DNA of 64,000 bases from Yuukianura sp. NJ FZ-2021 (lineage: Eukaryota), in NCBI GenBank assembly GCA_046563655.1, contig CM102284.1:1612001-1676000 (forward strand), given 5' to 3'. Positions 2 through 46,068 of this stretch are shown in pieces. The translations under genes and the position numbers were made by a program. The notes below the pieces were generated by a model. The model had not been told where the DNA came from. It made no database searches and saw nothing but the letters and a program-made list of their open reading frames with translations. Each line of letters begins with the position of its first letter. Position 1 is the stretch's first letter.

Positions 2-1780
2 ATTGTACTTTCATCAAATTTGGCACAACTTTCCGCCATCCAAAATAATTACTGGCATGTACCACTATTCTCTATTTACTTCAAACCTGATTCAGCAGTT
101 CCATTGTCTATACGTACCGAACTTGCCTTTCCATGCAATCGTGCACTTCGAATGAACGTACATAATATGCGCAGCTTGCAACAGAAAGGACTGCGTATCG
201 TTCTTGACCAACTTTTTCAAAAACTAGTTTTTAGTGCCTGTCATGTTGAATGGATTTTAAACTCGCCTACTGACAGGCTACCAAAATTTCAAAAAAATTT
301 GTTTTGGGGATTGCGTATAATAGAGAAACCAATGGATTCGTACATTCAAATTGTGAGAGACCTGATTGCAATTTTTAACATGTCCAGAGTTGGTCAAAGT
401 ATTGAAAATGACAATTTTGAAACGGATTTCAACAGTGAACTTTTTTCTAATCAAATAACTTCCGAAAAATGTCAAACACAGTTCAGTAGTGTTGTTAGGG
501 GTAAGCATCCGCATCCGCCGGCTTCATCCAAAAACCTAGATTTACATATGGTTTGGATTAATACTGACGTTACGCCATCACTACAATCTAGAAAAGGTTA
601 CAATCGTAACTACGAACAACTGGACACGTACTCGTACATTACAAACACAATTTCCTTCAACTTTATAACCTGTGCTGAATACAAGAAATTCATATCATTT
701 GACGCCCTTTTGGAGCCGTACGAAACTGATGTCTGGTGTACAGCAGTTGCTTCATGTTGCATATTTATTGTTGCATTCTATGTGTATTCAAGGATGACAA
801 ATTCAAAAAACTCCTCACTATTTACCGTTGTTAAAATTGTGTTGGAGCAGGGTGCAAATGTTGGGCAGTATACTGGGTATTACAAGTCTTATTACGCCGT
901 AGTCACTTTATGTATACTTGGAATGCTAACGTTGATAAATGCATACAAAGGAGTGCTAACTGCACGCGTAACTTCACCGCGATTTACTCGCCAACTTGAA
1001 ACGATACAGGAAGCTGTACAAGGAGGCCTGCAACTTTTAGTTGAGACTAAACCCATCCGAATCAACAGCAATGAAGGATATCTCAGAAAAATGATAAGCG
1101 TGGACATGCCAATCAAAGCAAGGATTGCTGCAGTAACACTTTTTAAATTAGAAAGTAGTCGCTTTTATAACCTACTGAACGAGAGGTTAGGATTCCAAAG
1201 TAACAACAAGAACAAAGAGGAGAAGAAAATGCTAAATCATATACTTGAAAACACTGATTTGAATTCCAGTCTAAACTACAATACAACTGAAAAGCTGTTT
1301 GAGTGTAACAAAACAATTTGGGTGGCTGACCAAGAGTTGTTGGCTGAGTTCCGTCAAAGAACTGCAGTGGTGGAGTTTTTAAAAAATAATACACACATTG
1401 CTGAGAAGTTGTACATGGGTAAAGATAAATTTATGGAGCACTACGTTGTATGGACTGTTGGTCCCAATAAGTGGGACCGTGCAAATAAGGTTCATTTTCG
1501 AATGCAACGAATTTTGCAATCTGGCATTAAAACTCACTTGGAACAAATGGAAACTTTCAAAAATTTAACGCGCGTTTTGCGTCAACAAGCGCTGAGGAGT
1601 ACACTTACTAGATTGTCAATGCAACTTAACCTCACAGCGGTAACATTCATTTTGTTGGCTTGCCTTCTCGCCGTATGTAGTTTGGTGCTGATGGGAGAAT
1701 TGGTGCAAAATTTTTGTGCTAAATATTTTCAAACCTTGGAAATGAATTGCTACTGTTACTGGTTAAGAACTAAGGTATAA
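2..1780 (+). CDS. Divergent ionotropic receptor (IR / iGluR-related chemoreceptor), intronless, 5'-truncated by window edge
   Basis: Frame open from base 2. SFNFITC...FDALLEPYETDVW precedes M1; a pore-like LEQG segment follows; M2 LINAYKGVLTARVTSP, S2 lobe LETIQEAV, MQRILQSGI, and a C-terminal TM ending LMGE. Confidence 0.8.
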   Translation: MVLSSNLAQLSAIQNNYWHVPLFSIYFKPDSAVPLSIRTELAFPCNRALRMNVHNMRSLQQKGLRIVLDQLFQKLVFSACHVEWILNSPTDRLPKFQKNLFWGLRIIEKPMDSYIQIVRDLIAIFNMSRVGQSIENDNFETDFNSELFSNQITSEKCQTQFSSVVRGKHPHPPASSKNLDLHMVWINTDVTPSLQSRKGYNRNYEQLDTYSYITNTISFNFITCAEYKKFISFDALLEPYETDVWCTAVASCCIFIVAFYVYSRMTNSKNSSLFTVVKIVLEQGANVGQYTGYYKSYYAVVTLCILGMLTLINAYKGVLTARVTSPRFTRQLETIQEAVQGGLQLLVETKPIRINSNEGYLRKMISVDMPIKARIAAVTLFKLESSRFYNLLNERLGFQSNNKNKEEKKMLNHILENTDLNSSLNYNTTEKLFECNKTIWVADQELLAEFRQRTAVVEFLKNNTHIAEKLYMGKDKFMEHYVVWTVGPNKWDRANKVHFRMQRILQSGIKTHLEQMETFKNLTRVLRQQALRSTLTRLSMQLNLTAVTFILLACLLAVCSLVLMGELVQNFCAKYFQTLEMNCYCYWLRTKV

Positions 1781-1925
1781 ACATCGAGCTGAATAATTTT
1801 AGTACAATTCATGTTTGAACACTCAAGAGGTATTGCTGCACATTGTGTTAATTAGTTTAAACTGATCCTAGTACAACAAAATCAGTCTTTGTGGTAAAGA
1901 AAATGTTTGAGTTGATAATCATTAA

Positions 1926-4229
1926 TTAATCCTTGTGTGTGTCATTCAATATGAAGATTGTCTTTAGCGTTAGGAGTTCTTGTTCAATCTGGAATCAAAA
2001 TAAGGTAAAAAAAAATAAAAACTTTCCAAATTGAAATTCGGCACAAACATTTTCTTATATTTTACATTAACAAAAATCTAAGCTAAGTTTGTGTTTACCT
2101 GCATCAGTTTTTCCAACGCAGATTTTACTGGTCCTAGCCACCTCAACTGTTCCGCTCGAAAATCTTCATTTTTTTGCAAAAGTTGTCCAAAGTCTTCAAT
2201 TTGTAAATCTCTGCAGAAAAAAAAGTAAAATGTTAGCAACTGCAACTTTGCTGTAAAGAAAATTTGATGACTTTACTTGCTATAAGGTGAAAATTTTGGC
2301 CCAAAATTTGCAATATCTGATTTGTCCAACGCAGTTTCAAGCTCCTGCACTTTGAGAAACAGGAAAATATTAAAACTGAGCAGTAAAACTGTCAATGTAC
2401 AAAGCAAAATTTTGAGCGGGAGATCCGATCTCCATTGAACCAAATTTGCAGAAGTCACGTTGAAAATATTCAGACCGCTTGACTTTGAATGCTGGCCTAC
2501 AATATTTTAAGTTTAGTAAATTAAATTTAGCTAAATTATGAAGTCTTTTAGAATATTTTCTGTTTCGTTTACATTCTGTCCTTTGTGCGGGAACGGCAGG
2601 AGCAGGTCGTTTTTTTCGAAGTGGGCGCCGATGCTGTTGACTTATTTCTGAAATTGGTGCCTCTACTTCAACAGAATTTGCAGCAACTGGCTTTGGAAAC
2701 ATCGCTTCAGTGCTGAATTCACGTTTCAGCTCAGCATGTAACTGGGTGTAGTAAATTTCAAGTCCTCCCCACATTCCCCGTTCAATAAAAGCTGCAATAA
2801 CGAAAAGTTAGTCAATGTAGAAAAATTGTTTTTAAAGTAGCAGGTAATTATTCAAATTCTAAATATTTCGTTCAAACTGGGCATATAAAACATAATAATT
2901 ATAAGAAATAATAATAAGAAATAATAATTAAAAACATATTTGCTTACATTTCAATGGAGTCCATTTTCTAAAAAATAAATTTGCGACTGCCGTAATGTGA
3001 GATTCCTTTGGAGCGACGCGAGTCAAACAGAAGTGAACCGTCAAATAGAAGGAATCGGCATTTGGAACTTCAGAGTTGTTTGACTCCATGTCAATAGCAT
3101 ACAAGTATCCAGGTTTACTAACCGGTAGAAGAACCTATAAAATTGTATATTATATAAATAATATATATAATATAGATAAATATAAATAACAATATTTAAG
3201 AAATTTGACTAAACACAACATTTTCCTAAAAAACATTATGAGATTTACCTGTTTCTCTGAAACTTTGCAATATTTTGGTCCAATTTTGACTGGCACTTTT
3301 GCATAATAAGTGTTTCGTCGAACAGTTTCAGCGCCCTCTTCCGTCCATTCACCCATCACTGCATCTACAATAAAATTGCGGGTGTAAAATTAAAAAAAAG
3401 TAACAAAAAAAGGGAATGGAAAGTATTGAATTTATTTTTTTGCATAGTACTTATCGTTTCTCTCTTGTCCTGAAGATCTTGGATAAACTTTGAATTTGAA
3501 AACAGAACGTTGAACAGAGTGAAAACGTCTGTTTGAACATTACAATCTAAAACAGTCCTTCCCACGCTGTGATCCACCGTACAAGTTGGAATTTTGCAGT
3601 CTTCGTCTCGGGAAGACTCCGAATCCGACGATTCAGACGAAACTACTTTATTATTCATAGCTCTACCCAAATTATCTTCGTGCGCCTGTGCAGTGCCATT
3701 CCGTTTTGGGTCAGAATGCGCATGCTCCTGTTCACTCAATTTGTGTGGCGCATTGAGTTCAACCTATAATAGATAGCGTGACAAAATTAATATATTATCA
3801 ATTTCTGGATAACCTTCAGCTCTGTTAGACTCAGGTTAGATTTAGTCAAAAAATTTGAAAAAGAGTCTAATTTTAAAATAGATTGGTACTAACCATTTCA
3901 TAATTCTCGGATTTGCTTCTGTTTATTCCTTTGACTTCGTTCCCAACGGAGAACAATTTTGAAGCATCGATTTCACTCTTCCCGCCACGCGTGTATTGCG
4001 TTGGCTCCGACACAGCTTTGGTCAAGTTTCTTCTACGTAGAATCACACTTGTAGGGCGTGTGAATACTGTGCACAATTCAAAAATTATTGTTATAACCTT
4101 CCTGTATACTTTGTTTTCATTAATTGAATTATAATTAATTGATGAATACTGCTGTATCCCACCTTCTATTTGTGAATCGCTGTTGTCTTCTTCATTGATT
4201 GGAAATACTTGCTCCCGACTGCTCCTCAT
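1926..4229 (-). CDS. VASt (StART-like) domain sterol-transfer protein, GRAMD1/Aster-like, multi-exon with C-terminal TM and coiled coil
   Basis: Spliced exons give VFTLFNVLFSNSKF..GEW..IGPKYCKVSEKQ..YAIDMESNNSEVPNADSFYLTVHFCLTR..FIERGMWGGLEIYY (VASt), then TM LPLKILLCTLTVLLLSFNIFLFLKV. Last exon ends HKD-TAA at 1926. A further upstream exon near 4575-4650 is possible. Confidence 0.75.
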
Positions 4230-5127
4230 TGGATCGTAATTTTGAAACTAAAGATATATTTTTTGAAAGTAAATTCAATATTTTGAGAACTGTTATAAGT
4301 TTGACAGTTTTCTAGGGAAAGAAAATTTTTAAATTGTGCAGTGTAGTTTTAAGTGCAAAAAAAATGACAATCCTCATTATCGTCCAATGTCAAATTTTAT
4401 CACATCCTTTGCAATTTTGATAAACTAAAATTCAATAGCTTATTTGCAAGTCTGCTGAATGTCAAATGTTTTTAGCCTTTTTCCAAACTTTTGCGGAAAA
4501 TCAGTAATCAGTAAGATCAGGGTGCAAAACCCACAAAAACAAAAATTACACGGAAGAATGATAAATTAAAAACTCACCCAATCTGAATTATACATGCTTT
4601 GGCCATAAACTTTAGCACAGTCATCCTGACTAACGTATATGAACTCCCTAAATGCAAGTTCTTCTACTGTAATTAAGAAAGTTTTAATTATGAAACTCAA
4701 AATTTTAATACTTTTTGCATTAAAGTCTGAAAAACAAAATTTCTTTGTAACCGTACACGTTTGCAATATACAGCGCAGTCGGAGTAAGCGCACATAAGCA
4801 CTGACCAGTATGAAATTGTGTTTTGAAGCTAAACTGCGCAGATGTGGACTTGTTTTGATCAATTTAGATACAAAATTGTTTATTTCAAGTTCATTTAACT
4901 TTTAAGTTCTGTCGTTTTTTGTTTTGCTATAAAACTTAAAACGAAACTTACACCGCTAAAATCTAATGTTGATAATTTTAAATAATAGAAACTCGGAATA
5001 TAAAATGTGCATGCTAACCCAACATAGCCTAACTACGTTAATTATAATTACTAATCAATAAATAAACTCTACTAATGTTATTATGCCGTGCATAAATCTT
5101 TTTTCTTCTTGAGGTTCATTATTATTA

Positions 5128-5425
5128 TTAAATAGAGACAAAGTTTGGCAAAATGTGGAAATTTTCCAGAGTTTTTGAATTTCCGTGCTGCCTTCCTAAG
5201 TAGTAGTTCGGAATGGTAAAAAAGTAGAGAGCTGCATTGTAAGCCAGAAGTAGTGCACCAAGTGACACCAAGAAGAAAACTTCACGGTAAATCAACCAGT
5301 GTCCAAACGGAAGGTATGCACTAAACAGCAAAAAATATTCAAACAAAAGTTCAACACAAAACTTTTAAGAAAAACTTGATTTTTTTTAAACTAATGACTC
5401 ACTCAAGCCGAATATTAGGATCCAT
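5128..5425 (-). CDS. Possible small two-exon single-TM protein (~72 aa), or degenerate upstream exon(s) of the VASt gene
   Basis: ATG at 5425 (MDPNIRL) with a GTGAGT donor splices in frame to AYLPFGHWLIYREVFFLVSLGALLLAYNAALYFF...; no family recognised. Confidence 0.3.
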
Positions 5426-5860
5426 GTCTGTTGGAATTTCAGAAACTACGTTAGTTGGTATACAACTGAATACCAGTAACGCAAAACACGTCACTAACAA
5501 AAATTTCGCTTCCATCCGAAATTTCATTTTTCAAAACTTCCAAACTCTCCTCTGATTTTCTGTTCTAAACTAAACTTTTCGCAGACAAAAAGAAATCCCG
5601 TTCGGCAGGAAAGGAAATTTAACGGTGGATGGAGCCTCCGCGTCCAAAATAACTTCTTTTTTTTTAAATCCGCCCAAAAAGTATATAAACTATTATTCTA
5701 TTATTTAATAAATAAAATGGTGACAAAATGCCAAAAAAAATTCTAGAGTTCAATCAGGTACAAACAAAATTAGTCTCCAGGACTTTTAACAAATTGCTTT
5801 TGAATTAAGATTTATTTCTTAAAAATTCATAATTTTTAAAAACCAATTGTTTAAAAATTT

Positions 5861-6358
5861 TCAAAGCTTGAGTTCGTAAGTGTACCAATCCATTATAGGT
5901 CCAAACTCTCGTATTCCCACTTCCGTTTTGATACGTTCAAATCCCAGGTTTTCATAAATTTTTTGTCCATCAGTTTGAACAGACGTAGTAGTTAAAATTA
6001 TTTTTGTGTAACCTTGATTCCGGGCAAATTCAATTACAGTTTGAACCAACTTCTTGCCAATTCCTCTACAACGTCCTTCTGAAGTGACGAGCAACAGTCG
6101 GAGTCGCGCAGTAGTGTCGTTTACGCGAGTGCAAAAGACGCAACCAACTCGAACTCCATGTACTTCTGCTATCCACACGCCGTAACCATGACAATTCCGG
6201 TTTGGAATGAATTCGGCCAAAACCCGGGCTGTAAAGGCCTCCAACTTTGTCAAATCCCAGGCAAATTCATGGATGAAGACTTCACCGTGTTTGAGCAATA
6301 TCCAACCCATGTCGCCCGGTTTTTCCCCACGTCGTATTCTCAATCCAGAAGTTTCCAT
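5861..6358 (-). CDS. GNAT N-acetyltransferase resembling the GNAT domain of bacterial MarR-GNAT proteins
   Basis: Intronless, 165 aa: PGDMGWILLKHGEVF..E..WD, WIAEVHGVRVGCVF, ARLRLLLV, acetyl-CoA motif RCRGIGKKL, FARNQGY, IYENLGF. Confidence 0.9.
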   Translation of the reverse strand: METSGLRIRRGEKPGDMGWILLKHGEVFIHEFAWDLTKLEAFTARVLAEFIPNRNCHGYGVWIAEVHGVRVGCVFCTRVNDTTARLRLLLVTSEGRCRGIGKKLVQTVIEFARNQGYTKIILTTTSVQTDGQKIYENLGFERIKTEVGIREFGPIMDWYTYELKL

Positions 6359-6786
6359 GACTCTTGAAAATGAAAAAAAAAATTTCTAAAATAGGTTGTG
6401 TCGCGAGTTACAAAAATCAAGCTGTTTCTTAGAACAAACTCAAAGATTAATTGAAGACGGATCATGATTCGGCTCAACCTTGTAGGAATTACAAAATCAT
6501 CCACAGCATGTGTGATTCCTAAAAATATGTAATACGAACCAGGCAAAAAATAACGCAAATCCTAGAAGTTGGGGAAAACACGTCACTTCAAGACAGATTA
6601 ATTTAATTTATTCAACACAAGCTTCAACATATTAAAATCAAACTTCTGCTAATCTAACCCACGGAATATTTTATTCAAGACTTTACTAGCAGTTTTTGCT
6701 GTAGCAGTTTTTAGCACGTTTTGAAATGAATTTAGTTTGCATCATAAATCACATTTTTAGACGTCTTGTTAGGGATTTTACTACTA

Positions 6787-6993
6787 CAGTGGATTCTCTA
6801 AATAAGGGACAGGAGCTCCTCCTCTTTCTCACTTTCACTCGAAGTCGCGGTACCGTAAAGTTTTAATTTTGGAGGGAACGTATGTTTCAGTTTATCGGCT
6901 TATTTTTTACGATTGTTTTTTTTGGTTAATTTTTTTTTTGGTGCGAAACAAAAGTAATTAGATAATTAAATGGAATTAACTAATATTAATATA

Positions 6994-7033
<40 letters not shown>

Positions 7034-7390
7034 GCGCACAAACTGCGCAACAGCGCACAACCTGCGCAACAGCGCACAACCTGCACTGTATATAATATAT
7101 TATTTTATATAACCTGTTTAATAAGGGTGACATTCACAACGTAATTTGCATATAATATACCATATAATATTGATTAGTATATAGATATCACATATAATTA
7201 GCATTAATATATGAATATTATGTATATTAATATTAATTATATACTCTGAACTTCGAAACAGGAAATTTTCATTAGAATGGTGTTCCTAGCCTTAAATTCC
7301 ATATAACTGACCGTTTACCAGAAATCTTACGGTACTGGGGGAGGCGCCTACTACCAATCCTCCAATCGTGATTTTTTCCCTTATCCACTG
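6787..7390. mobile_element. Putative non-autonomous Tc1/mariner-like element remnant
   Basis: TA|CAGTGGAT at 6785-6794 and ATCCACTG|TA at 7383-7392; both ends also carry ATAAGGGA. The interior holds (TA)n and GCGCACAAC repeats. Confidence 0.4.
6989..7090. repeat. (TA)n microsatellite followed by short GCGCA(C)AAC tandem repeat
   Basis: Seen directly in the sequence. Confidence 0.9.
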
Positions 7391-8313
7391 TAATACACTC
7401 AAACCTTTCCACCAAAATTTCTAGCATATCGAAGTTTAAATTCCTTCATTTCCAGGTCCATGAGCGACTCGTAGACTTTAGTATTGATCCGTGTTAATTT
7501 CAAGTCAAAAATTAAAAATATGTAAAATGAGTATTGACGAAGAACGTTTTGATTTCCGGGTACATGTAGATGCGACGGATTCACTTCAACCAGAGACCTT
7601 TCTAGTGGTGGCTCATTAAAAACCAAATGAACAACTGCACAAGGAAAAAAAATTCACCTACAACTGCTGTTGTTCTAAATATTAACTAATGCCCCTGTAC
7701 ATAGCCGTGAGTATCGTTACTTACTTTCGACAGCAACAGAGTCACAGTCAACTCAACATAAAGCAGCAGCATAGCAGTAGTAGAGAGATTAATGCAAATA
7801 CAAGTTGAGCAATAGTGTATTATTTTATTTACAATAATATTTGATTTAACCCCACCTTTTTTCGTGCGTTTTTCCGAAATGTCGCCGCTCAAGCGTTGCC
7901 ACCCATTGTAGCTACTCACGATGGCTGCCAGCGGCTACACTGAGGGGCTAGAATGAAGGTCCTTATAGCTTACCTCAACCGAGTTTCTAACCTTATAAAG
8001 CAAACATCTGATGCATCCAAAATCCGAGATTTAGGGTAGCCCGCATGCGATGCCCGATCCTGCTGGATTGGAAGCTCGCACGCCTGCCTTGCCTGGGACA
8101 GGGACAGTGAAAGTGTCGAACTATGGATGAAACGGAGTGGAATTTTGGTCTGATTAGATTAATGATGCGATGAGTCACAGTCACTCATCATTAACTTCAC
8201 TTAAAATAATTACAGTTCCAATCTGCCTGGTCTGAAAAGACAAAGGAAAGTTTGGAAGCTGCTGGTCCTGTGGTTAGGATTCTTCATTGTCTTTGCATCC
8301 GAAAGACAAAAAA

Positions 8314-10311
8314 ATGGATCAAACTCCTCCAACGTTTGTTTACTTGGACAATTCCAACATATTTGTCAGTTCGCAGTCATACTCCAGCAAAATCAACAAC
8401 TACAGAGATGGGGTGATGGACATCCAATGTCGTATAAACACCAGCATACTACTTGACATCGTTTTGGACGGAAGGAACCCCATGCTGAAGAAGGCTTATG
8501 GGAATATGCCGAAAGAGGTGGGTCAATGGGTGCACATTTTGAATTGTTATGGTATTTTTTAAATATATTTTGGTTTTCGCTTATTGTTAGTTATTTTGGT
8601 TGGAGAGTAGATCCTGATCCGCAGTCTGTTTTTCTTTTAGTTCTTTTAGTTAGGTTATCAAATCAGGACACAGTGCACGGTGTTGAAGTTCAACACCGTG
8701 CACTGTGTCCTGATTTGATAACCTAACTCGCACTAAAAGAAAAACAGACTGCGGATCTACTCTCCAACCGTTATTTTTAGGTTTCCATGCATAATTTTCG
8801 TTTTTTCATCGACAGGTGAAACATGAGTTGGACAAGGCCGGATTCAAAGTGTTCCTATCAGATTCCGTAATAGGAGAAAAAGAAATCGACACCAAATTAA
8901 CAGCTGATGCTGTGGAAGATATTCTTATTCATCACTTTCGATCAAAGGATTTGAAAGGTCACAATGGGACTCTTATTCTTCTTAGTGGAGACAGGGATAT
9001 GCTACCGCTCATTCACTTGGCTAGAAAATACGAATGGGACGTGGAAGTATGGGCTTACGAAAACTCACTTACAGGAGCGTTCCAGATTGAGACAGAACGC
9101 AAGGAATACGGCAGCTTGATGGAGATCAAACCACTTGAAAAGCATTTCAAGGAATTTGTTTTCTATGATGAGAGGGTTCCTGATCTTGAGAAGAATAAGG
9201 AGCGGACTATCCTTGTTAGGTATTTTCATTTGATTTATACTGTTTGAAGTTTTCGATATGGGGAAAATGCTTTACGTTATAGATTTCGGGACAAAGGAGC
9301 CACGCTGAAAAAATTATCGCCAGATTCTAAAAGCAACGTGACACAGCTAGTATTAGAAATAGCAAAAGCCAAATTTCGTTTGCCAGTCGTTGGAAAAATT
9401 TTGGAACTGGATAACGGAAATGAACAAGCAGTTGCAATCGTTCTCGTTGTGGACGACCGGAAACAAAAGAAACCAGTCTATAATTTTCAAACAGATGTGG
9501 TTGACAAGTTTCCGGAATTTGAACGAGACTTAAGCAACCAACTTAGGAACAAGTTTATAAAGACAAGCGTTCACGTTTTGAATTTGGATCGTTCCGTGGG
9601 AAATACGGAGATTACGCAAATATTTCAAAGTTTTGGAGCCATTGTTGCATGTCATCTGGACCGTGATGACCAAGGAATGTCTAAGGGCGCAGCAATTGTT
9701 TGCTTTCAAAATGAATCATCAGCGATTAAAGCCATCAATACACTAAATGGGACCAAGTCACTAAACAATCAATTCCTGAGTGTCCGTCCGTACACTCCAG
9801 GTAATTCAAATTGATTTATAATTAATTGCTAAGACACTTTTTTTATAATGTAATAAGTTCCATTTCTGATTGTAAAATAGGTTCCTTTTCTGTTTCAGAA
9901 TCTGGAATTGACGCAGTATCAGTAACAATTTTCAGCGATATGACTCCACCAGCAAGAAATCACGGACGAGATGGTGGCAATACAGGGAATGCTGCTGGTG
10001 CTGCTACAGGAAATCGACATAACAGTACTAATAGTAGTAGCGGCGAGGCAAAAACTTATGGACAAAGTTCCAGCGGCGGTAGCGGAAATACTGCTCCTCC
10101 AAGAAATAGACAGAATAGTGCTAACACTGGCAATGGAGGCGCTAAACCAAAGGGCAACATTCCAGCACATCTTCATAAAGCATATCGTACCAAGTATTGC
10201 ACTTACGAACATTGTGACAAAGGGAAATGCGTAAGAGCTCATTCAGATGAAGAAATACGATGTTACCACTGCGGAGAGAACCACTTTTCTGAAGTTTGCA
10301 GCAAAAAGTGA
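8314..10311 (+). CDS. NYN (LabA/DUF88-type PIN) ribonuclease - RRM - G/N-rich linker - CCCH finger - CCHC knuckle protein, 4 exons, ~515 aa
   Basis: Exons 8314-8517, 8816-9219, 9283-9800 and 9881(or 9899)-10311 splice in frame at GT-AG. NYN motifs FVYLDNSN, EKEIDT, LLSGDRDM, WDVEVWAY; RRM VHVLNL..SKGAAIVCF; YRTKYC-x4-C-x4-C-x3-H and C-x2-C-x3-H-x4-C. Confidence 0.85.
8598..8769. mobile_element. Palindromic MITE in intron 1 of the NYN gene, 8-bp TSD
   Basis: Near-perfect 172-bp palindrome GGTTGGAGAGTAGATC...GATCTACTCTCCAACC centred on GTTGAAGTTCAAC, flanked by GTTATTTT at 8590-8597 and 8770-8777. Confidence 0.9.
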
Positions 10312-10450
10312 GTTATAAAGGGTCAAAGTGCTAAAAGAAAAACAGTGATTTATGTACATGGTATAAAACCAATCATTGTGGTTAGGCGATGCATAAGAAT
10401 TTTTGAAAGCGATTTTATCATGGCATGTATTTTTCTTAAGTTCGGCAAAA

Positions 10451-11011
10451 CGTAGCACGCCATTAGATCAAAAAAATTAGGTAAGCAGAATTGACGTCAG
10501 CAGAAAATAGGTAAGTTGAAATTAGGTAAGCAATGCATTTAGGTAAGCAATAGATTTAGGTAAGCAGAAAAGTGGTAAGTAGAAAGTAGGTAAGCGGCAT
10601 AATTAGGTAAGCAGGATTTACATAAGTCACGAAGGCAAAATGTTTGGTTAGGGTTTGCTCGTTACGTAAGGTTAACTTTATAGTTTCCCGCGCCGGAGGC
10701 GCGGTGTTAGGTTTTCAAAAGTTTGAGATACTGATTCCGTCTCGAGGGCCCTCGTTAAGGTTTGATTATGTTATCTAACGACCAAAATTTGAGCACTAAA
10801 TAAATAATAACTTTTTTCAAAATTTCACCTTCGTGACTTTTGCAAATCCTGCTTACCTAATTATGCCGCTTACCAACTTTCCACTTACCTCTTTTCTGCT
10901 TACCTAAATCTATTGCTTACCTAAATGCATTGCTTACCTAATTTCAACTTACCTATTTTCTGCTGACGTCAATTCTGCTTACCTAATTTTTTGATCTAAT
11001 GGCATGGAACC
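10451..11011 (-). mobile_element. Foldback / Mutator-like non-autonomous element A with AGGTAAGC repeat arms
   Basis: ~175-bp inverted arms each with 8 GGTAAG-type units; TSD CGGCAAAA at 10443-10450 and 11012-11019; ends CGTAGCA.../...TGGAACC; central hairpin CCCGCGCCGGAGGCGCGG-TGTTAGGTT. Confidence 0.9.
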
Positions 11012-11251
11012 CGGCAAAAATCTTATTTGAAAAAATTATAAATCACAAAAAAAAAACAAAAATGAAAAATTTAAAACATATTAATAGAAACTTATAAAAC
11101 AAATAATATAAAAATTAATAAATAATACCCACAGAAACTATTTTTTTTTAATTTCCAATTTATTTAAGTACCATATAGCTTGCGTTTACGCTAAGGTAAT
11201 TTTAGGCTATGCCAGTTATATTGCATCTAGAAAGCATTCGTGCTATCATCT

Positions 11252-12495
11252 TCATGGCTTCACTTGTAAAATATTTCCCAGTCCATATCGCTTCACATAC
11301 TTGTAAGCAAATAGTTCGCCATCTAGAATATACTTGGCCGTTTGTATATAATTTTCAACTGCCGGGTCATCTGGGAAGTATTCCAGTAGTTTGTTAGAGC
11401 ATAGCATAAAATCGGCATAAGCAAAGTGAAGATTTTGGAGGGAAATTTGAAAAGAATCGTCCAGTGACATTCCAGTCTGTGCCACACGCAGCAAAATTGG
11501 ACTCTCATGGATAGCCTTTTCCTTCAAATCTTTTTTAATCCAAAGATAGCATTGGCATTCACGCAAATTTCAGAGTAGCTTGTCACCATTTGGTCAAATA
11601 GGAGATCATCCCTGACTTCTTCCGGAAGTTGAATTCCAAAGCATGCACAAAGGAATTCCAAGTACAGCTCCATTCCATGGACATAGTGTAGCACTTGTGA
11701 ACTTAAATTCGGATGCATAAGATGTTGCCGCTTCGAAGCCAACTCAGTTTGCAGTAACTTTGCCTGAGCAGTTAAATAAGCACAGCGCATGGGAGGTTTT
11801 GAAAAAAAGTTTTCCCGCAAATTCAGTTCGGAAAGATCATTCAAAAACTGGGTACAAATTTTGACCAATCCAGATAACGTTTCACTTGGCAACATCGCGA
11901 AAGATTTAGCCGCGTACATCATAATCTCCTGATTGGATATGGCCAGACTCCAGCGCCGATGGAACCCCGCGTAAGGCACTGATTTTGTAACAGTTTGCGC
12001 ATGCTCGTCATGTGCGTCTATAAAATCATCTACGGCGTACGTTACACACCAAGTGTAGCTAATTGTGCGCATTACACGTGACTGTATGTCTTTTGAAGGA
12101 CTAAGGCATGCCGTTGCGACGATGAACTCTTGAAGCATTTGAGTCAATTCAGCAGCCGATTTGTGCGGGAAAATCGGTTTGCAAAGGTCAAGAAGATGAT
12201 TGGCGAGGTCACGGGTTGACTCTGTATCGTCCAAGCAAGAAGGCACAACGTACTCTCCCGGTTTCAAGACAAAAGGAATCTCACCGCGGCAGTTTTGAAT
12301 TTTACCAAAGACGGGATCAGATATTGTTCCAAGGTCAAACGACATTCCATGAAAATTCCTCCGATTTAAAAACGGTAGTGGAGGCCTGACACGCCCAAAC
12401 CCACAAAATTTTGAAACTGAACATTTTTGTCTCCAAAACAAACTTTTTGTTGGCAAATTTGAAATTTTTAAAAAACTTGAGACAGATTTGAACAT
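11252..12495 (-). pseudogene. Microbial-type class I terpene synthase-fold gene, copy 1, with a single 1-nt frameshift near 11531-11536 (pseudogene, assembly error or slippery site)
   Basis: Collinear with 13209-14453. AVDDFID (DDxxD), GIQLPEEV, NAIFGLKK|DL, KRY. The A-run has 6 A where 7 would keep the paralog's frame; the two ORF halves are otherwise intact. Confidence 0.7.
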
Positions 12496-13208
12496 TTCTT
12501 TAAGTTTTGTTGCACAAATACAGTGATGGATGTTGTGACACACTGAAACTTCTACTGAGCACATCATTAAAATATTTAACATGATATATTAAATATTTTA
12601 TCTATCTTCATTAAAGTTGTGAATTAACTGGTGTTTTGCGTGGAAACTTCCTTTAATGTAATTTCATGCTACAATTTATGCACGCCATAAGAAACTTAGG
12701 TTGACGTAAGTATTGTCGACCACGACTGGGGCTGTAGGGTACAGCGATAAAGTGTCGACACTCTCCACACCTTGTGTAAAGCACACCTCATCGCAACGAA
12801 TTTTGCCGGTTAGGTATTATGTTTTTGTGTTATCAGAAACTAAGTTGCCATGTAAGTAAAGTTGCCCTCCTAACGTAGCCACAAAGCGTGAATTGTTGCT
12901 GGGTACAATTGCGATCGAAAGACTTACTTCAACCAACATGAATTAAATGGGAGGAAAGGGAATAAAATTTCGCTTTTTCTCAAGAATGACGACGGCAAAA
13001 TAACTTATTGTCAAAACACCATGAATTTTGCTAGTTAACAACAAAAATACACAATTCACACAATAAGGATTTAAACTTATAATACCTATATAATATAATA
13101 TTATTTTATTTTTGCATTTTTTTCAGTTGCCAATTTATTTAACTAAATAGGATATTATTTTATGCCAGTTACAGTCTGAGCATGTAGGAATCATGCGTGT
13201 TGCCATCT

Positions 13209-14453
13209 TCACGTTTTCACTTGTAAAACATTTTCCCCTCCAAATCGCTTCATAAATTGGTAAGCAAACAGCGCACCATCTAAAACGTACTTGGCCATTT
13301 GTATATAATTTTCAACTGCCGTGTCTTCTGGGAAGTATTCCAGTAGTTTGTTGGAACTTAGCGTAAAATCGGCATAAGCAAAGTGAAGATTTTGGAGGGA
13401 AATTTGAAATGAATCATCCAAAGAAATTCCAGTCTGTGCCACACGCAGTAAAATTGGATTCTCCCCAATTCCCTTCTCTTTTAAGTCTTTTCTCAATCCA
13501 AAGATAGCATTGGTATTGATGCAGATTTCAGAGAAGCTGTACAACATTGGTTCAAATAGAATGTCTTTCCTCACTTCTTCCGGAAGTTCAATTCCAGTAC
13601 AGATGCAAATAAATTCCAGGTTCAACTCCATTCCATGGACATAATGAAATATCCTGGAATTCAAATTTGGTTGAAAGAAAGTTTCCCGCTTCCGACTCAT
13701 CTCAATGTGTAATAATTTCGCCAATGCAGTCTGAAGAGCACATCGCATGGGATATTTTGAAAAGAATTTTTGGCGTAACTTGAGAGCCGACAATTCATCC
13801 ACAAAAATGTTGCATGCTTTAACTAGTCCCGAACTGGCCTCACTTGGCAACGTCGCAAAAGTTTTTGCCGCGTAGCTAATGATGTTCTGATGTGACATGG
13901 CCCATGTCCAGTGTCGATGGAATCCCTTGTATGACACTGCCCGAGCAACTGCTTGCGCATGCTCAGCATTTGAATCAATAAAGTCATCTACGGCATATGC
14001 TATACACCATGTTAAACAAATCGCCCGCATTTCACGTGACTTGACGTTTATGTAAGGACTTAAACAGGCACTAGCCGTAATAAAGTCTTGAACTATTTGA
14101 GTCAACTGCTGATGAGATTTAAGCGGGAAAATCGGCTTACAAATGGCAACAAGGTCATTGACGAGGTCACTATTTGGATCGGGGTCACTCACGATAGATG
14201 GCAGCACATATTCTCCTGGTTTCAAAAGAAATGGAATGTCACCGCGGCAGTTTTCAATTTTACCAAAAACAGGATCCGATATTGTTCCAAGGTCAAAAGA
14301 CATTCCGTGGAAGCTACTTTGAATTGACAAGCTAGAAGGTGTAGTGATGCAACGATAGGTACAAACTTTTGAAATTGTGTCTACTTTTCGCCAAAACAAA
14401 ACTTTGTTTCGGAAGTTTGAAATTTTCAAAAAATTTAAAGCGAATCTCGACAT
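13209..14453 (-). CDS. Microbial-type class I terpene synthase / isoprenoid synthase-fold protein, copy 2, with putative mitochondrial presequence
   Basis: Intronless, 414 aa: YAVDDFID, GIELPEEV, NSE-position NAIFGLRKD, NPILLRVAQTGISLDDSF (cf. NLVxVL..GxSLQEA), KRF near the C-terminus. N-terminus is R/K/S/F-rich and nearly free of acidic residues. Confidence 0.8.
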   Translation of the reverse strand: MSRFALNFLKISNFRNKVLFWRKVDTISKVCTYRCITTPSSLSIQSSFHGMSFDLGTISDPVFGKIENCRGDIPFLLKPGEYVLPSIVSDPDPNSDLVNDLVAICKPIFPLKSHQQLTQIVQDFITASACLSPYINVKSREMRAICLTWCIAYAVDDFIDSNAEHAQAVARAVSYKGFHRHWTWAMSHQNIISYAAKTFATLPSEASSGLVKACNIFVDELSALKLRQKFFSKYPMRCALQTALAKLLHIEMSRKRETFFQPNLNSRIFHYVHGMELNLEFICICTGIELPEEVRKDILFEPMLYSFSEICINTNAIFGLRKDLKEKGIGENPILLRVAQTGISLDDSFQISLQNLHFAYADFTLSSNKLLEYFPEDTAVENYIQMAKYVLDGALFAYQFMKRFGGENVLQVKT

Positions 14454-15187
14454 TTAAAAAAAAACAAGTAAGTAGAATGAATTTCCTCCTCAACTTTTTA
14501 TACGTACTATTGCTAGATAGAAGTGACACTAAAACTTTGTTTTTCAGGATCTTTGAAGTTGGAAATTTGTTTTTGTGTAGAAAACATCCAGGATTGAAGA
14601 AAAACAGGTTTTGTACACAATTTCCTCATCAACAGATGCAAATCTAGTAAAAAAAAAAACTTGCATGAAAGCCCAGGAAGAACAGGATTCAAATGTAACA
14701 TTTTCTCACGAAATTCAAGAAAGCCAAACTTGTCAAACGACTCTAATTTTTGTAGCTAGCAAGAAAACCATTCGCCCTCAAGCACATTTTTTCTTTCCTA
14801 TTTTTGAAGCTAGTAAGATGGAATTCTGAAATTTTAAAAAATTAGAAAACAAAAATTTGAAATTTCAAGTGCGCTTTTGTGAACATTGTTATATGTATAG
14901 TTCATCCGCTGCTTTTCACTTTATTTATTAATAACATTTATTATTCTCTAATTTATAATGAAAATATGCAATTTTTGTTTTTAATATAAACCTTAAAACT
15001 TCAAACGCAAAACCAACTTAGACGCATATTCAAGAATGAGTTTCAAAAAAAGAAGGGAAACATTGAAGCAAAGAATGCGGGAAAACCCAATACCTGGAAC
15101 TCCATTTGCTCATTGTTTTTGTTTGTTTGTTTTTGTTTTTTTTTTTGTGAAATGGCGAGTGATTTTTCTGTTTCCAATTTTTTTTTT

Positions 15188-29480: not shown

Positions 29481-31139
29481 AGGGAGGCAGCGACGACATG
29501 ACGAGAGAGGAGGTAGTTTTTTTTGCAATCTGCCAATCTCTTATGTGTGTAAAATTCAAATCCTGAGGTTCCCGCGCTTTTCGAATCCGAACTCTGCGTT
29601 GATATAAGGAGTAACGACAACAGTTAATTTTACAATGGTGTCGCCGTAGCCATAGCCAATTTAAAATTTCCAACAGATGGTTACACTAACAGGTATGTTT
29701 GTGGCAACCCATGTTGCCGTTTTTCTTCGCACTTGGACTTACCAACTTGAACGCACGTTTTCATGTCAATCCAATCTTACAGTGGATACACAAGGTACAC
29801 ATGATCCTTACTATAATCATAAATTTCTTGCAATTATTATAATTTGGTTGACGTCAGGGTAACACGACTTGCTTTGTGAGCACAAAACCGACGCAGTTCG
29901 TTTAATCGACACTTATACTGATGGAAATATTTGCCAAAATTATGAAAATTGCATAATGCGAAACATTTATCATATTTATATAAAATATATTATACAAAAA
30001 GAAAAAAGGAATTGTAAAAAAATTTAGTACTAATCTGGATTAGTCACATACTATTCACTTTTGGTATTAATATGAATATAAGATATATTTCGGATAGCTT
30101 AACTTTGGACAAAACGTTTTGTTTTGTTTGCTACAATAAAAATTTCGCATTATAAACGAAGTTCGAATAAAACTACTTTTCAAAAGCTTCAGTTTTCGTA
30201 GTTTATTTTATAAAATATTTGACAAACAGCAGCATTTACTATTTGATGGTGATTTTTAACTGCAATAGCAAAACCCACACCTTCACAGCGTGATCGCTAA
30301 AGAAAAAATAACTAATCTAGTCCTCAGATTTCCAGTACAATTCAGTGATAACTGGAATTGCCAAGATTTTCCAAATCAACTTCCAATTCAAAATGACAAA
30401 ATCAAAATATGAATACAAAATGTCACACTCCGTGTGCCAAATTTTTTTTTATAATATTTTTCCACTGCTGTCTTTTACGTTTTTGAATAAAGTAAAAATC
30501 CATTTGGAGCACTATGCGAGCACTTCAAATGAAGGTTGCAAAATTCAAAATTAACATTCCATAGCATGTTCTTTTCAGTAGAGGCCATACAGTCGCATAT
30601 GAGAAAAAATGTCAGTAAAGAAGAATTTCGTGATTTTATTTATCTGAAATTTCATTGAAATTTAGTTCAAATTTAGTAAGGCGTTGCTTTACTATTAAAA
30701 TAGAAATGAAAAAAAAAATTCTTGGTTTGATTTTTTTTCGTAACGGAATCTTTTGACCTCTAAAGTTTTGTAGAGGTCGAAGGTAAACCCCGGCCAAAAT
30801 CATGAGAAAATCGTTTTTGAAAATGATGCTTAATAATTTTATGCGTTCTGGCGAAGCGGCAAGCATAGTGGAAGTGGTGAAGCCATTACACGAAATCTTG
30901 TGCGAACTGCTTCAAAATATTTATGAATAAAGAAAACACGGCGTCTTTGTCACGTATATCAATAGTTTGAGAGACATGAGTAGTGGAGCGGCATTTTTGG
31001 TTTTGATTAACTTTACATTCCAAGGAGGCTTTAAAAACGCAGTTTCTACTCATCGCAATTTCTAGAATATTGAAATTAAACTATTTTTCTTTTGTAGAAG
31101 TTTTGTGACACTTTTGTGTTCCTTCGAAACCTGTTCAAA

Positions 31140-31931
31140 ATGCAACATGTACTTTTCATTCTGTTGGTTGCTTCGCTTACTGTAATCAACTGTCAATCTA
31201 CAACTGCAGCACCTACAACTGCTGCAACGACAACTGATACAACTACAACTGCTGCAACGACAACTGATACAACTACAACTGCTGCAACTACAACCGCAGC
31301 AACTACAACTGCTGCAACTACAACCGCAGCAACTACAACTGCTGCAACTACAACCGCAGCAACTACAACTGCTGCAACTACTACCACGCTTCCAACTACT
31401 CCGACAACTGCAGCAACTACTACCACGCCTCCAACTACTCCGACAACCCCAACAACCCCCACAACTACTCCGACAACCCCAACAACCCCCACAACTACTC
31501 CGACAACCCCCACAACTACTCCGACAACCCCGACAACCCCCACAACTACTCCGACAACCCCGACAACCCCCACAACTACTCCGACAACCCCGACAACAAC
31601 AACTATTACTACAACCACGACTACTCCTGCACCGGCAGTCACGTTACCGCCTTACAGTTAAGTTCACTGTTAATTTTTTTTATCGAAAGTTTTATTTTAA
31701 ACAATGTTTCAAACACTTCTTCAGCTGTTCCTGCTTCACCAATAACCTGCGCCCTCATACCTCGTTACACTACCAACACTGGGTATACTTGCGTTTGCGG
31801 AAACGGAATGTACACTTGTACCTCAACTGTTGGTAAGTTTTTACTCAAAAAATAAAATTTCAATTCTACAAAATTTAAAAATTGGTAGATATAAAAACTG
31901 ATATTTTATTTTCATAGTGGTCAGAGGCTGA
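31140..31931 (+). CDS. Secreted Thr/Pro-rich mucin-stalk protein with C-terminal 4-Cys mini-domain and VVRG micro-exon
   Basis: Exons 31140-31656, 31725-31832 and 31918-31931: signal peptide, TTTAA/TTP repeats, CALIPRYTTNTGYTCVCGNGMYTC, VVRG*. Confidence 0.8.
31199..31625 (+). repeat. Coding tandem repeats (ACTACAACTGCTGCA / CCGACAACC units)
   Basis: Seen directly; encodes the TTTAA and PTT repeats. Confidence 0.9.
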
Positions 31932-42132: not shown

Positions 42133-43712
42133 TTACAAACTCCAAATATCAACCATGGTTCCATTTTCAAGTCGAACGTAGTTGGCCCGTTCTGTCCAAA
42201 TGTCGCGTGACAAGTCCAGTTCCACAACACGAGCTCCACGGTCCCAGTCTCCGTAACCACCGTAACCAGTACGTCGGTTGTAACAAATTTCCAAAGTTTC
42301 GTATTTGCAACACCACGAGTTACCTAACAATAGTTTATATAAAAATAAATATATAAATATATTAATTAATACAAATAAATTCTAAGATAGATATAAATAA
42401 TATATAAATGTATTTGTAGGCATACCATGGTCATGTCCGACAAAAGTTGTCAAAACGGTGGAGTCCAGCAATTGAAACATGAATCCTGTGTCCAGGTCTT
42501 GCGGTACGACTTTGTCATCTGTAAATTTTTAAAAGCACAAAAACCGTATAAAAATTTAACACAAAATTTCAGTTTAGCAAAATTCAAAATTGTAAAAAAA
42601 AAAATGATGTTGTACTAAAGTCCATCCTTACCAACTAACCCAACACACTGGTAATTCTCAATGTTGTCTTGGACAATATCGTAGTCAATTCTACAAAACC
42701 AAGAGACAGCAATGTTATCTACCTTTTTTTAAAGAAATTTTTAAGATTTGAGAGAAATTTTTTTTCAAAAAATTTCCACCTACGTTGGAATATGAAAAAA
42801 TGCCAAGGCCGGAATTTCTCCCCAAGTGGCAGCAATTTGATCTCGTTCAGCCATAAACCATTGAACAACAGCTTCATCAACATACGACGGGTAGATTCCG
42901 TTGGGGTCAAATCCACCGCGAGAATCAAAAAACCAAAGAATAAGCGCTGGAACGTCGCCCTCTTGTTTGTAAACAGGCAAGTAGTAATTTGTGAGTCCAG
43001 GTAAAGATGGATCTCCGTGTTGAGTGTAGGAGTTGGCATATTTGGATTCAGTTCCGAAGATCTCTTCTCTGGTAGTGGTGAGTCCGTTGTCATGGTTACC
43101 ATAAGTAGAAGCCCACTTGTAACCTCCTTGTGACACAGCCTCAAAGCAAGCATCGATGAATCGGGTTGAATTGGCAGCTACGGCATCGGCTGTCATCAAG
43201 TCGCCCGTGAAAACGACTAAATCTGGCGTCTCCATGTCCAGAAGCACCTTCATGACACGCGTTGAATTTGCATCTTGTTCCTTTCCAGTCCCTTCACCTA
43301 CTAGTTCAAGTTCACCATAGTGCCTATTTTAAAAAAAATTTACAAGATTTTTGTAACATTTTTACAAAAATTTTGCTACATTTCTACAAAAATTCTAAAA
43401 CAAACGCATAACTTATAATTTAGGTCTATAAATGTCCTGAATCAGAAGTTATGAGTTGAAACGAAAATAAATTATAAAATTAATTTTACTTATTTTTGTT
43501 CAAATTTAATAGTTTATAATTCCCATGTTATCGAAATTTAGTGGGAAATAATCATGTAACGACGTAATACGTGAGTGCGAAACTTACAAATCAGCAAAAT
43601 TCATAATTTTGAATTTCCCATTCGAGTTGAATCGAAGTGGCTCCTTGACAACGGGCAAAGCGTGTAGGAGTTGAGCCAAAAGCAAGAGGCCAGTGACAAG
43701 TGAAAACCTCAT
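42133..43712 (-). CDS. Secreted calcineurin-like metallophosphoesterase of the Dcr2 / plant PAP16-29 type, copy 1 (5 exons)
   Basis: Signal, LRFNSNGKFKIMNFADL|HYGE, PDLVVFTGD, YGNHD, FFHIP, GHDH, RRTGYGGYG..RGARV. Confidence 0.88.
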
Positions 43713-44611: not shown

Positions 44612-46068
44612 TTACAAACTCCAAATATCAACCATGGTTCCATTTTCAAGTCGAACGTAGTTGGCCCGTTCTGTCCAAATGTCGCGTGACAAGTCCAGTT
44701 CCACAACACGAGCTCCACGGTCCCAGTCTCCGTAACCACCGTAACCAGTACGTCGGTTGTAACAAATTTCCAAAGTTTCGTATTGGCAACACCATGAGTT
44801 ACCTAACAACAGTTAGTATGAAAACGTATTAATACAAACAATATTCAAATATAAACACAAAGAATGAATACATTAATTTGTAGGCATACCATGGTCATGT
44901 CCTACAAAAGTTGTCAAAACGGTGGAGTTGAGCAATTGAAACATGAACCCTGTGTCGATGTCTTGTGGTACTACCGCGTCATCTGTAGATCGTACCAGCA
45001 CAAAAATGATGTTAAAATTCTCAGTTCATCAAAATTAAAATTTTAAAAAACCGTTGTTGAACCGTTAACAAGTGAGGTCCATCTAATACTTACCGACTAG
45101 TCCAACGCACTCGAAAATTTCAATATTGTCTTGAACAAACTCGTAGTCAATTCTACAAAACCAAAGATAGAAAAAATATAGGTCCAAAATTATATAAATT
45201 TCTAAGATTAGAAAAAAAAAGTTTTCATTTTTCACTTACGTTGGAATATGGAAAAATGCCAACGCTGGAATTTTTCCCCACTTGGCATCAATTTTATCTC
45301 GTTCATCCATAAACCATTGTACAACGGCTTCATCAACATACGAAGGGTATGTTGTTGTTGAATAAAATCCACCGCGAGTGTCAAAAAACCACAGAATGAC
45401 TGCTGGTACGTCGCCCTCTTGCGGGTAAACAGGCAAGTAGTAGTTTGTGAGTCCCGGTAAATTTGGATCTCCATGTTGAGTGTAGGTGTTGGCATATCTG
45501 GACTCAATTCCAAAAATGTGTTCCCGCGAAATTGCGACTCCGTTGTCATGGTTACCATAAGTAGAAGCCCACTTGTAACCTCCTTGTGACACAGCCTCAA
45601 AGCATTGATCTATGTATTGACCTGGATTGATAAGTATGCCATCAGCTGTCAGCAAGTCGCCCGTGAAAACGACGAAATCTGGTGTCTCCATGTCCAGAAG
45701 CGACCTCATGACGCTCGTTGATTTTGAATCTTCGTCATTTCCAACAAATTCACCATAGTGCCTATTTTGAAACAATTTTACAAAAATTTAAAAAAAATGA
45801 AAAGGAACTCAGAAGTTTTGATTTAAATAAATATAATTAATACATTAATTATTTTTGTTATTTAATATTTCATTATGTCCGTATGTAGTTGAACTTTAGT
45901 GGAGCGTGTGATTCAAGTAGTGACGCAGTAATTCGGGACTTACAAGTCAGCAAAGTTCATAATTTTGAATTTTCCATTGGAGTTGAATCGTAATGGGTCC
46001 TTGGCAACGGGCGAAGCGTTTAGGAGTTGAGCCAACACCAAGACGCTAGCGATTAGTGAAGACCTCAT
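44612..46068 (-). CDS. Secreted Dcr2/PAP-type metallophosphoesterase, copy 2 (tandem duplicate)
   Basis: Same exon structure and motifs as copy 1; the upstream region is also duplicated. Confidence 0.88.

Follow-up and report, generated by a model that had tools for sequence, protein, structure and literature searches.

INTRODUCTION

Canonical terpene synthases of animals are recent discoveries: they became known from corals in 2022, from sponges in 2023, and from mites, springtails and fungus gnats between 2024 and 2026. Here we describe a tandem pair of terpene-synthase-like genes on the minus strand of a 64,000-nucleotide stretch of DNA from Yuukianura sp. NJ FZ-2021 (assembly GCA_046563655.1, contig CM102284.1, positions 1,612,001 to 1,676,000). 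This whole stretch is called the window, and positions below are counted from its first letter.

Among arthropods, microbial-type terpene synthases of mites and fungus gnats have been described (PMC11665903), and in springtails 277 microbial-type synthase genes were reported from 21 of 26 genomes, with 45% of the genes intronless (PMC13638087). The same report covers the enzymes ScTC1-5 of Sinella curviseta; although all five springtail enzymes have the full set of canonical motifs, ScTC4 was inactive in vitro. In sponges, the second metal-binding motif had the form NDXXGXXXD in 12 of 13 characterised synthases, all active enzymes carried the C-terminal RY dimer, and the genes were single-exon (PMC9992776). 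The Gly of this motif was also seen in plant enzymes, and a relaxed form, (N/D)Dxx(S/T/G)xxx(D/E), occurs in active sponge enzymes and some plant enzymes. Ten enzymes from the sponge Acanthella extend this picture (PMC13483135): nine have NDxxGxxxD together with RY and all nine make sesquiterpenes, while the remaining one has NNxxGxxxD with SY and makes cembrene B; most of the genes are intronless and seven are clustered. In bacterial class I enzymes the pyrophosphate-sensor Arg usually lies 46 residues before the Asn of the NSE motif, and active bacterial enzymes exist with an altered first NSE residue, as does an active caryophyllene synthase with an RF dimer (PMC5082573).

Against this background we analyzed the pair in the window. 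Judged from the sequence and a structural model, the reading that we favour, with a probability of about two in three, is that of two intact, tandem, single-exon nuclear genes for microbial-type alpha-domain class I terpene synthases in an animal, probably an arthropod outside the insects, for example a springtail. Their products are probably working terpene synthases, a variant within a known animal family.

RESULTS

A tandem gene pair with the class I terpene synthase fold

Two homologous single-exon open reading frames (ORFs) lie on the minus strand of the window, copy 1 at 13209..14453 and copy 2 at 11252..12495. Copy 1 is intact (414 codons, 414 amino acids), and the ORF, Pfam, the AlphaFold model and fold matches together mark its product as class I alpha-domain terpene synthase-like. 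Copy 2 is a paralog that also has 414 codons when the length of one A-run is taken from sequencing reads; the two proteins are 63% identical, with zero indels over the 414 codons. A first-pass annotation of the locus had proposed tandem intronless paralogs with a terpene synthase fold, and both parts of that proposal hold. A tblastn search of the window with copy 1 returned these two copies only.

The Terpene_syn_C_2 hidden Markov model (HMM) of Pfam (PF19086) matched copy 1 at 27.4 bits, above the curated cut-off of 23.7 (E 3.4e-6). A phmmer search of 1.84 billion representative proteins gave 56 relatives at E <= 0.001, the best of them P0001 (36% identity, full length); all 20 relatives whose origin was looked up came from metagenome or read-archive assemblies. 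We aligned a family of 40 members, 34 of which match Terpene_syn_C_2 individually. When the profile of this family was compared with the PDB, 70 terpene-synthase sequences were found at E <= 0.01, led by 7w5f (5e-22) and 7zrn (1.2e-21), and DDxxD, the NSE region and RY were in register between the family profile and the PDB synthases. The N-terminal block alone (residues 43-130) produced chance-level matches only against PDB sequences.

The AlphaFold model of copy 1, with the family alignment as input, reached a predicted local distance difference test score (pLDDT) of 83.9 and a predicted template modelling score (pTM) of 0.84, with residues 1-41 below 50. Every match listed by Foldseek was a class I synthase (E about 1e-6, target TM-scores 0.65-0.78). 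In VIA-align, T-muurolol synthase 9hqd was the best match (Z 29.0, root-mean-square deviation 2.9 over 302 residues), with similar Z for many bacterial and fungal enzymes, and the N-prenyltransferases DabA (6vkz, Z 28.4, model residues 43-411) and KabA (9m1w, Z 27.1, residues 38-410) were also matched. Pfam, the PDB profile matches, the model, Foldseek and VIA-align all agree, and the predicted structure is a class I alpha-domain terpene synthase fold.

Other searches were less productive. A word-based search with the 40-sequence profile returned P0041 as its sole match. Pattern scans with the subfamily motifs found no prokaryotic carrier; of 159 pattern matches in metagenomes and 81 in prokaryote genomes, none was confirmed as a relative, and a scan with a pattern from P0006 gave 91 matches, none of them confirmed as a relative.

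Metal-binding motifs and the sensor position

Both copies contain the motifs that the first-pass annotation had listed: DDFID, GI(E/Q)LPEEV (GIELPEEV in copy 1, GIQLPEEV in copy 2), NAIFGL(R/K)KD, (F/L)HYVHG, a terminal KRF or KRY, and FHGMSFDLG after the leader. All lie on the minus strand. The first metal-binding motif, DDFID (D156, D157 and D160; 13974..13988 in copy 1 and 12016-12030 in copy 2), stands at the end of model helix 140-160 and aligns with the DDxxD/DDxxE motifs of 7w5f and 7zrn. The second, NAIFGLRKD in copy 1 (N315, G319, K322 and D323; 13485..13511) and NAIFGLKKD in copy 2 (11528-11553, across the A-run), is aligned to NEILSLQKE in 7w5f and to NDIYSLRKE in 7zrn. It does not follow the canonical NSE/DTE triad ND(L/I/V)xSxxxE: the Asn is retained, Ser is replaced by Gly and Glu by Asp (the N-G-D form), and the second residue is Ala. 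The sensor region of copy 1, F269-H270-Y-V-H-G274 (13632..13649), corresponds to the helix-G kink, and the model helix breaks at G274. F269 is exactly 46 residues before N315, the usual place of the sensor Arg in bacterial class I enzymes; copy 2 has Leu at this position, and a His adjoins it. At the C-terminus copy 1 has R403-F404 (13242..13247), that is RF for RY, and copy 2 has RY (11285-11290).

We then compared these positions over the 40 aligned rows, the window protein among them. DDxxD/E was found in nearly all rows that cover the site. The second motif was N-x3-G-x3-D in 27 rows (window protein included), N-x3-S-x3-E in 11, N-G-E in one (P0024) and degenerate in one (P0046). The sensor column, 46 residues before the Asn, held Arg in 23 rows; in six (P0001, P0004, P0007, P0010, P0014 and P0021) the Arg stood one position later, and 11, including the window protein, had none at either place. 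RY was present at the C-terminus of 36 rows. Within a 10-sequence subfamily alignment D156, D157, D160, G274, E280, R295, N315, G319, D323 and R403 were invariant. A quick maximum-likelihood tree was built from 39 rows (P0010 and P0021, both short, were left out, and the N-terminal part of copy 2 was added; branch support was measured by the Shimodaira-Hasegawa-like approximate likelihood ratio test, SH-aLRT). Copies 1 and 2 were sisters (SH-aLRT 100), joined next by P0001 (99), within a 22-row clade (96) in which all rows are N-G-D. Ten of the 11 canonical N-S-E rows fell on one side of a branch (SH-aLRT 99), with P0054 on the other.

The Gly/Asp second motif is therefore an old, conserved state of the family that is compatible with catalysis. 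The earlier suggestion that the motif changes predate the duplication is thus correct: they are present in both copies, and N-G-D, shared by 27 of the 40 rows, is far older than the duplication. The suggestion did not hold, however, that a "rewired" second metal site indicates non-canonical chemistry or a non-catalytic role, because N-G-D is the majority form of the family and is carried by active sponge enzymes. Since active sponge enzymes have NDxxGxxxD and an active bacterial enzyme has RF, neither the second motif nor the RF dimer gives grounds to suppose lost or changed chemistry, and non-canonical chemistry is unsupported. What is truly unusual in the aligned sequences is the loss of any Arg around the pyrophosphate-sensor position, which is the lineage-specific change. 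This lack is possibly tolerated, because the 11 rows without Arg at either position keep the other motifs.

By analogy with the family, DDFID and N315/G319/D323, with K322 and R403-(F/Y)404, would bind a cluster of Mg2+ ions together with the diphosphate group of a prenyl diphosphate. That group would then depart, and the carbocation would be cyclised or quenched in the helical pocket. Family precedent suggests candidate substrates from farnesyl diphosphate (FPP) to geranylfarnesyl diphosphate (GFPP), the range used by characterised relatives. Without the sensor Arg, the coupling of substrate binding to ionisation may differ. The basic leader of ~48 residues, the other lineage-specific feature, may act as a targeting peptide.

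Selection on the two copies

The ratio of nonsynonymous to synonymous divergence (dN/dS, Nei-Gojobori) between copy 1 and copy 2 was 0.26 overall, with dS 0.87. In the core (codons 48-322) it was 0.23 with dS 1.04, and in the leader (codons 1-47), where identity is 34% and there are no indels between the copies, it was 0.49. Both copies have been under purifying selection since the duplication. In codons 323-413 dN/dS was 0.22 with dS only 0.46, and the DNA identity in a sliding window rises to 83-93% compared to about 68% elsewhere. The low dS in this part relative to codons 48-322, together with the locally high DNA identity, suggests later gene conversion in the 3' part; the probable tract is 13240..13463 on the minus strand, about nucleotides 990-1215 of the copy 1 coding sequence.

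The N-terminal leader and the possibility of another role

We next describe the leader, aa 1-48, which is encoded on the minus strand at 14310..14453 in copy 1 and 12352..12495 in copy 2. As had been noticed earlier, it is basic and nearly acid-free: the first 45 residues have a net charge of +7 with one acidic residue in copy 1 and +9 with none in copy 2. It precedes FHGMSFDLG and is disordered in the model of copy 1. Because it is open and free of indels in both copies, and because P0001 has no Met at the junction, the leader is translated sequence and not an untranslated region. Copy 1, copy 2 and P0001 have 43-49 residues before the SFDLG-type block, with net charges of +7, +9 and +6 and 1, 0 and 0 acidic residues, respectively; in the 13 other relatives with a leader of at least 15 residues the net charge ranges from -5 to +4. 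Two of these 13, P0020 and P0026, start with a hydrophobic, signal-peptide-like stretch. A presequence-like composition (net positive, almost no acids) was reached by two of 21 window ORFs, one of which is copy 1.

Matrix-targeting presequences are recognised by an amphipathic helix together with a motif for the processing peptidase. For the two leaders the helical hydrophobic moment was 0.39-0.40, which equals the background of the 21 window ORFs (0.38). A shared cleavage motif is absent at the leader junction of copies 1 and 2: Arg at -3 from the junction is present in copy 2 only (RRNF|HG), and there is no Arg near the junction of copy 1. We take the copy 2 sequence to fit the R-3 cleavage pattern. 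Judged by its composition, the leader may be a mitochondrial presequence, although we consider this less likely than not. M51 is conserved in both copies exactly at the junction of leader and core, and it is a matter of speculation from the sequence whether it could permit a leaderless, cytosolic isoform.

If the leader did direct import, the two proteins could belong to a subfamily that works in mitochondria and has some other function there, either different chemistry (hydrolysis of prenyl diphosphates or prenyl transfer) or binding of isoprenoids only. The charge of the leaders of both copies and P0001 compared to the other relatives, the absence of indels and the dN/dS of 0.49 in a disordered segment, and the missing sensor Arg are all in keeping with this. 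Moreover, N-prenyltransferases with the terpene synthase fold do exist, and DabA and KabA gave the widest match coverage of the N-terminal part. Nevertheless, we consider this explanation unlikely. The hydrophobic moment is at background and the copy 1 junction is devoid of Arg; active sponge cyclases carry N-G-D; the motif pattern of DabA is reversed relative to that of the window proteins; and all metal and diphosphate ligands except the sensor are strictly conserved, which argues for catalysis. A fuller version, in which an arthropod clade with sponge-like N-G-D and no sensor Arg is imported into mitochondria by a newly acquired presequence and makes linear or hydrolysed products from the prenyl-diphosphate pool of the organelle, in place of the cyclised terpenes that are usual in the cytosol, would likewise be improbable.

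A similarly doubtful explanation is that both proteins are catalytically dead descendants of terpene synthases that are kept for binding or regulation. It would account for the lack of the sensor Arg in both copies, and inactivity has a precedent in such a family, ScTC4. However, the Asp residues of DDxxD, N315, K322, D323 and R403 are kept in both copies despite a dS of about 0.9. Since a binding-only protein has little reason to retain metal ligands, this conservation speaks for catalysis, and the 11 rows without the Arg that preserve their other motifs suggest that its absence is a tolerated state.

Reading frame of copy 2 and support from sequencing reads

In the window sequence, copy 2 is broken into two ORFs, 11524-12582 and 11252-11566, with one base missing in the A-run 11531-11536. 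This A6 homopolymer (minus strand) lies inside NAIFGLKKD, is one base short of the read-derived contigs and appears as a one-column gap in the DNA alignment. We placed Logan contigs from four public runs on positions 11000-14800; three runs (X1-X3) represent one sample of organism A and the fourth (X4) organism B, and the runs come from two studies. An extra T behind 11530 was present at full depth in all four runs, which restores the frame of copy 2. Because all four carry the extra base in the A-run, copy 2 is an intact gene. The organism A sample is possibly the source of the window assembly, and the independent support is therefore that of organism B alone.

It follows that copy 2 is very unlikely to be a pseudogene that leaves copy 1 as the sole working gene. 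The window sequence taken at face value does read ...GLKKI* in frame 1 and resumes in another frame, and the origin of three of the four supporting runs in one sample, possibly that of the assembly, weakens the read evidence. On the other hand, the extra base is at full depth in every run, a second organism included, and the 91 codons downstream of the frameshift stay open to the homologous stop with a dN/dS of 0.22.

The start of copy 2 is the Met homologous to that of copy 1 (MFKSVSS, at 12495), and the gene ends at 11252. In the three organism A runs, 5 extra bases behind 12516 disrupt the in-frame extension of copy 2 to 12582; MFKSVSS is favoured as the start because this insertion puts the upstream ATGs out of frame. 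On the upstream side the homology between the two copies reaches no more than a few bases beyond the ATG, and on the downstream side it ends about 60-100 bases past the stop. About 40-50 bases upstream of the copy 1 ATG lies TATAAAAAG (14494..14502, minus strand), a possible core promoter judging by its sequence. The contigs of organism B match both copies with roughly 90% identity, so the duplication predates the split of organisms A and B.

The same contigs revealed variation in and between the genes. In the organism A runs a second version was present at approximately half depth at 11864-12150 and 12429-12452, with 22 differences in one 213-base contig, and at several places it had the letter of organism B. 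The sample of organism A thus seems to contain two diverged haplotypes or strains. In the intergenic spacer, at 12719-12828, the X1-X3 contigs skip 108 bases, with one other letter between, and X4 has a different skip of 78 bases (12723-12802). Both skips represent structural variation of the intergenic region.

Genomic neighbourhood

The window is eukaryotic and gene-dense, with GNAT, NYN, RRM, GBP, astacin, DM9 and SET genes, two metallophosphoesterases, a BBE-type flavin adenine dinucleotide (FAD) oxidase and C2H2 zinc fingers; a GT-AG intron of 62 bases interrupts the GBP gene, and a match to the EB module was weak and sub-threshold. The GC content of the pair (0.40 and 0.42) and its GC at third codon positions (GC3, 0.39) are similar to those of the neighbouring host genes. 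Microbial contamination or a very recent horizontal insert is accordingly the remotest of the explanations: the genes are single-exon, and a comparison of language-model features puts fungal Terpene_syn_C_2 families closest to them among the named clusters (0.94), but the pair is embedded among eukaryotic genes (RRM/NYN, the intron-bearing GBP, astacin, DM9, C2H2 and a receptor-like ORF), shares their GC and GC3, is matched in both copies by contigs of a related organism, and its subfamily patterns matched no prokaryotic genome. A horizontal origin of the family as a whole is plausible; given the host-like GC and GC3 and the lack of any prokaryotic carrier of the motifs in the pattern scans, it would not be recent.

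We did not find a biosynthetic partner (P450, prenyltransferase or other) among the 28 stop-to-stop ORFs around the pair or the larger ORFs, and Rfam and tRNA scans of the window gave no matches. Next to copy 2 on its downstream side, three adjoining plus-strand ORFs at 8816-10311 are probably one gene; they contain NYN, RRM and a Gly/Asn-rich tail whose end is a Cys/His stretch similar to a zinc knuckle. A GNAT acetyltransferase (5861-6358, minus strand) and a berberine-bridge-type FAD oxidase (FAD_binding_4 and BBE, split over two ORFs at 49522-50556 and 51094-51474, plus strand) are encoded at distances of 5 kb and 35 kb from the pair, respectively. Both families are typically microbial or plant, and it is possible that these two genes are further old foreign acquisitions.

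Several other features of the window were observed. The ORF at 2-1780 (plus strand; 592 residues, single exon) runs off the start of the window, and its Pfam match to Lig_chan is only faint (E 0.72). In Atlas (0.92-0.97) Arthropoda was the commonest phylum in all eight listed rows, five of which have Lig_chan on 14-70% of members, and one of these five is named 'Ionotropic receptor'; the sequence is probably that of a divergent ionotropic chemoreceptor. As a lead, this result favoured an arthropod host over a bdelloid rotifer, an amoeba or a sponge, which had also been considered. Multi-pass membrane ORFs that lack a Pfam match form paralogous pairs, each split in two, at 51572-53130 and 59537-61129 (minus strand), about 7 kb apart, and also at 47235-48867 (plus strand), and may represent a lineage-specific receptor family. 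Each of two tandem calcineurin-like metallophosphoesterase paralogs (42780-43253 and 45236-45775, minus strand) overlaps with a further long ORF that is read in a different frame. The ORF at 31116-31661 (plus strand) has a signal peptide and consists almost wholly of Thr/Pro/Ala repeats (mucin-like), which accounts for a strong dip in GC skew at 30-32 kb.

DISCUSSION

Several observations weigh against the interpretation of the pair as probably working terpene synthases. The Pfam match is marginal, with 27.4 bits for copy 1 against the cut-off of 23.7, and the frameshift-cut fragment of copy 2 falls under it with 15.6. A word-based search of 5.8 billion proteins with copy 1 gave no match. The sensor Arg is absent from both copies (F269/L269); in the nearest relatives P0001, P0004 and P0007 an Arg is kept one position on, at the place of the His of the window copies. 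In the NSE-like motif Ala replaces Asp as the second residue, copy 1 has RF instead of RY, and mutations in conserved motifs are usually critical for function (PMC5082573). Among the neighbours, the relatives of the SET-domain gene come solely from metagenome or read-archive assemblies. Finally, membership of the pair in the springtail clade would hinge on a by-eye comparison of sequences.

The pair and its roughly 27 environmental relatives indicate that a Gly/Asp second metal motif is not confined to sponges, and surveys that require the canonical NSE motif would discard such genes. Functional or not, a subgroup that lacks the sensor Arg offers a natural experiment on the importance of that residue. 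If the leader does target the protein, this could be the first organelle-directed terpene synthase of animals (none was found in the literature searched); otherwise the two genes would just add to a growing family. Our search of the literature turned up no relevant report of a terpene synthase from rotifers, tardigrades or nematodes, nor of a mitochondrial one of the microbial type.

How, then, does the pair compare with known systems? Fold matches to the glutamate N-prenyltransferases DabA and KabA were as strong as those to true cyclases, and they were the only ones that reached model residues 38-43. Like the window proteins, these enzymes have N- and C-terminal additions, with a beta-hairpin. 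In DabA, DDxxD is lost (NDxxA) and N-T-E is kept (bioRxiv 10.1101/2020.03.31.014811). The window proteins are the opposite, with DDFID kept and the second motif altered. The bacterial and fungal synthases (T-muurolol synthase 9hqd, 10-epi-cubebol synthase 7zrn, BcBOT2 8h6u, TaTC6 7w5f and Cop4 8gr5) have the same fold (Z 26-29) at 9-15% identity, but they possess the canonical NSE triad and the sensor Arg and are devoid of the basic leader.

Sponge type I enzymes (uBuTS, PhTS, AgTS, StTS and AcT1TS1-10; PMC9992776, PMC13483135) resemble the window pair in a second motif with a middle Gly and a final Asp, the RY dimer, mostly single-exon genes in tandem clusters and weak matches to standard terpene-synthase HMMs. 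They are proven cyclases of FPP or geranylgeranyl diphosphate (GGPP). Unlike the window pair, they retain Arg in the vicinity of the sensor position and Asp in second place of the motif, they end 2-10 residues after RY, and their N-terminus is unlike that of the window pair. None of the patterns AIFGL, SFDLG, ILRKVV, DGQIY, GLQKD and PILLRV, nor six GLx[KR]D variants, matched any of the 567 type I sequences of the sponge dataset, and by eye none of the 56 library relatives resembles the sponge enzymes. The Gly/Asp motif that the pair shares with sponges may be convergent.

The enzymes of springtails, mites and fungus gnats are, like the window pair, alpha-domain-only class I proteins of about 410-470 aa encoded by nuclear, often intronless, multi-copy and divergent genes. 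The window genes or close orthologs of them may already be among the 277 springtail sequences. When compared by eye only, ScTC1-5 and the window pair share the order of their blocks (the N-terminal beta block, LSP...DDxxD, and the SLEEAF-like and RY regions), and G(I)xL..E(V)R is found 20 residues before the second motif in both. They differ in that the motifs of ScTC1-5 are canonical (NDxxSxxxE, with the sensor Arg and RY also present), whereas the window pair has NAxxGxxxD, F/L followed by His, and RF in copy 1. In addition, ScTC1, 2 and 5 have a longer N-terminal region with acidic residues, while the window pair has the basic leader.

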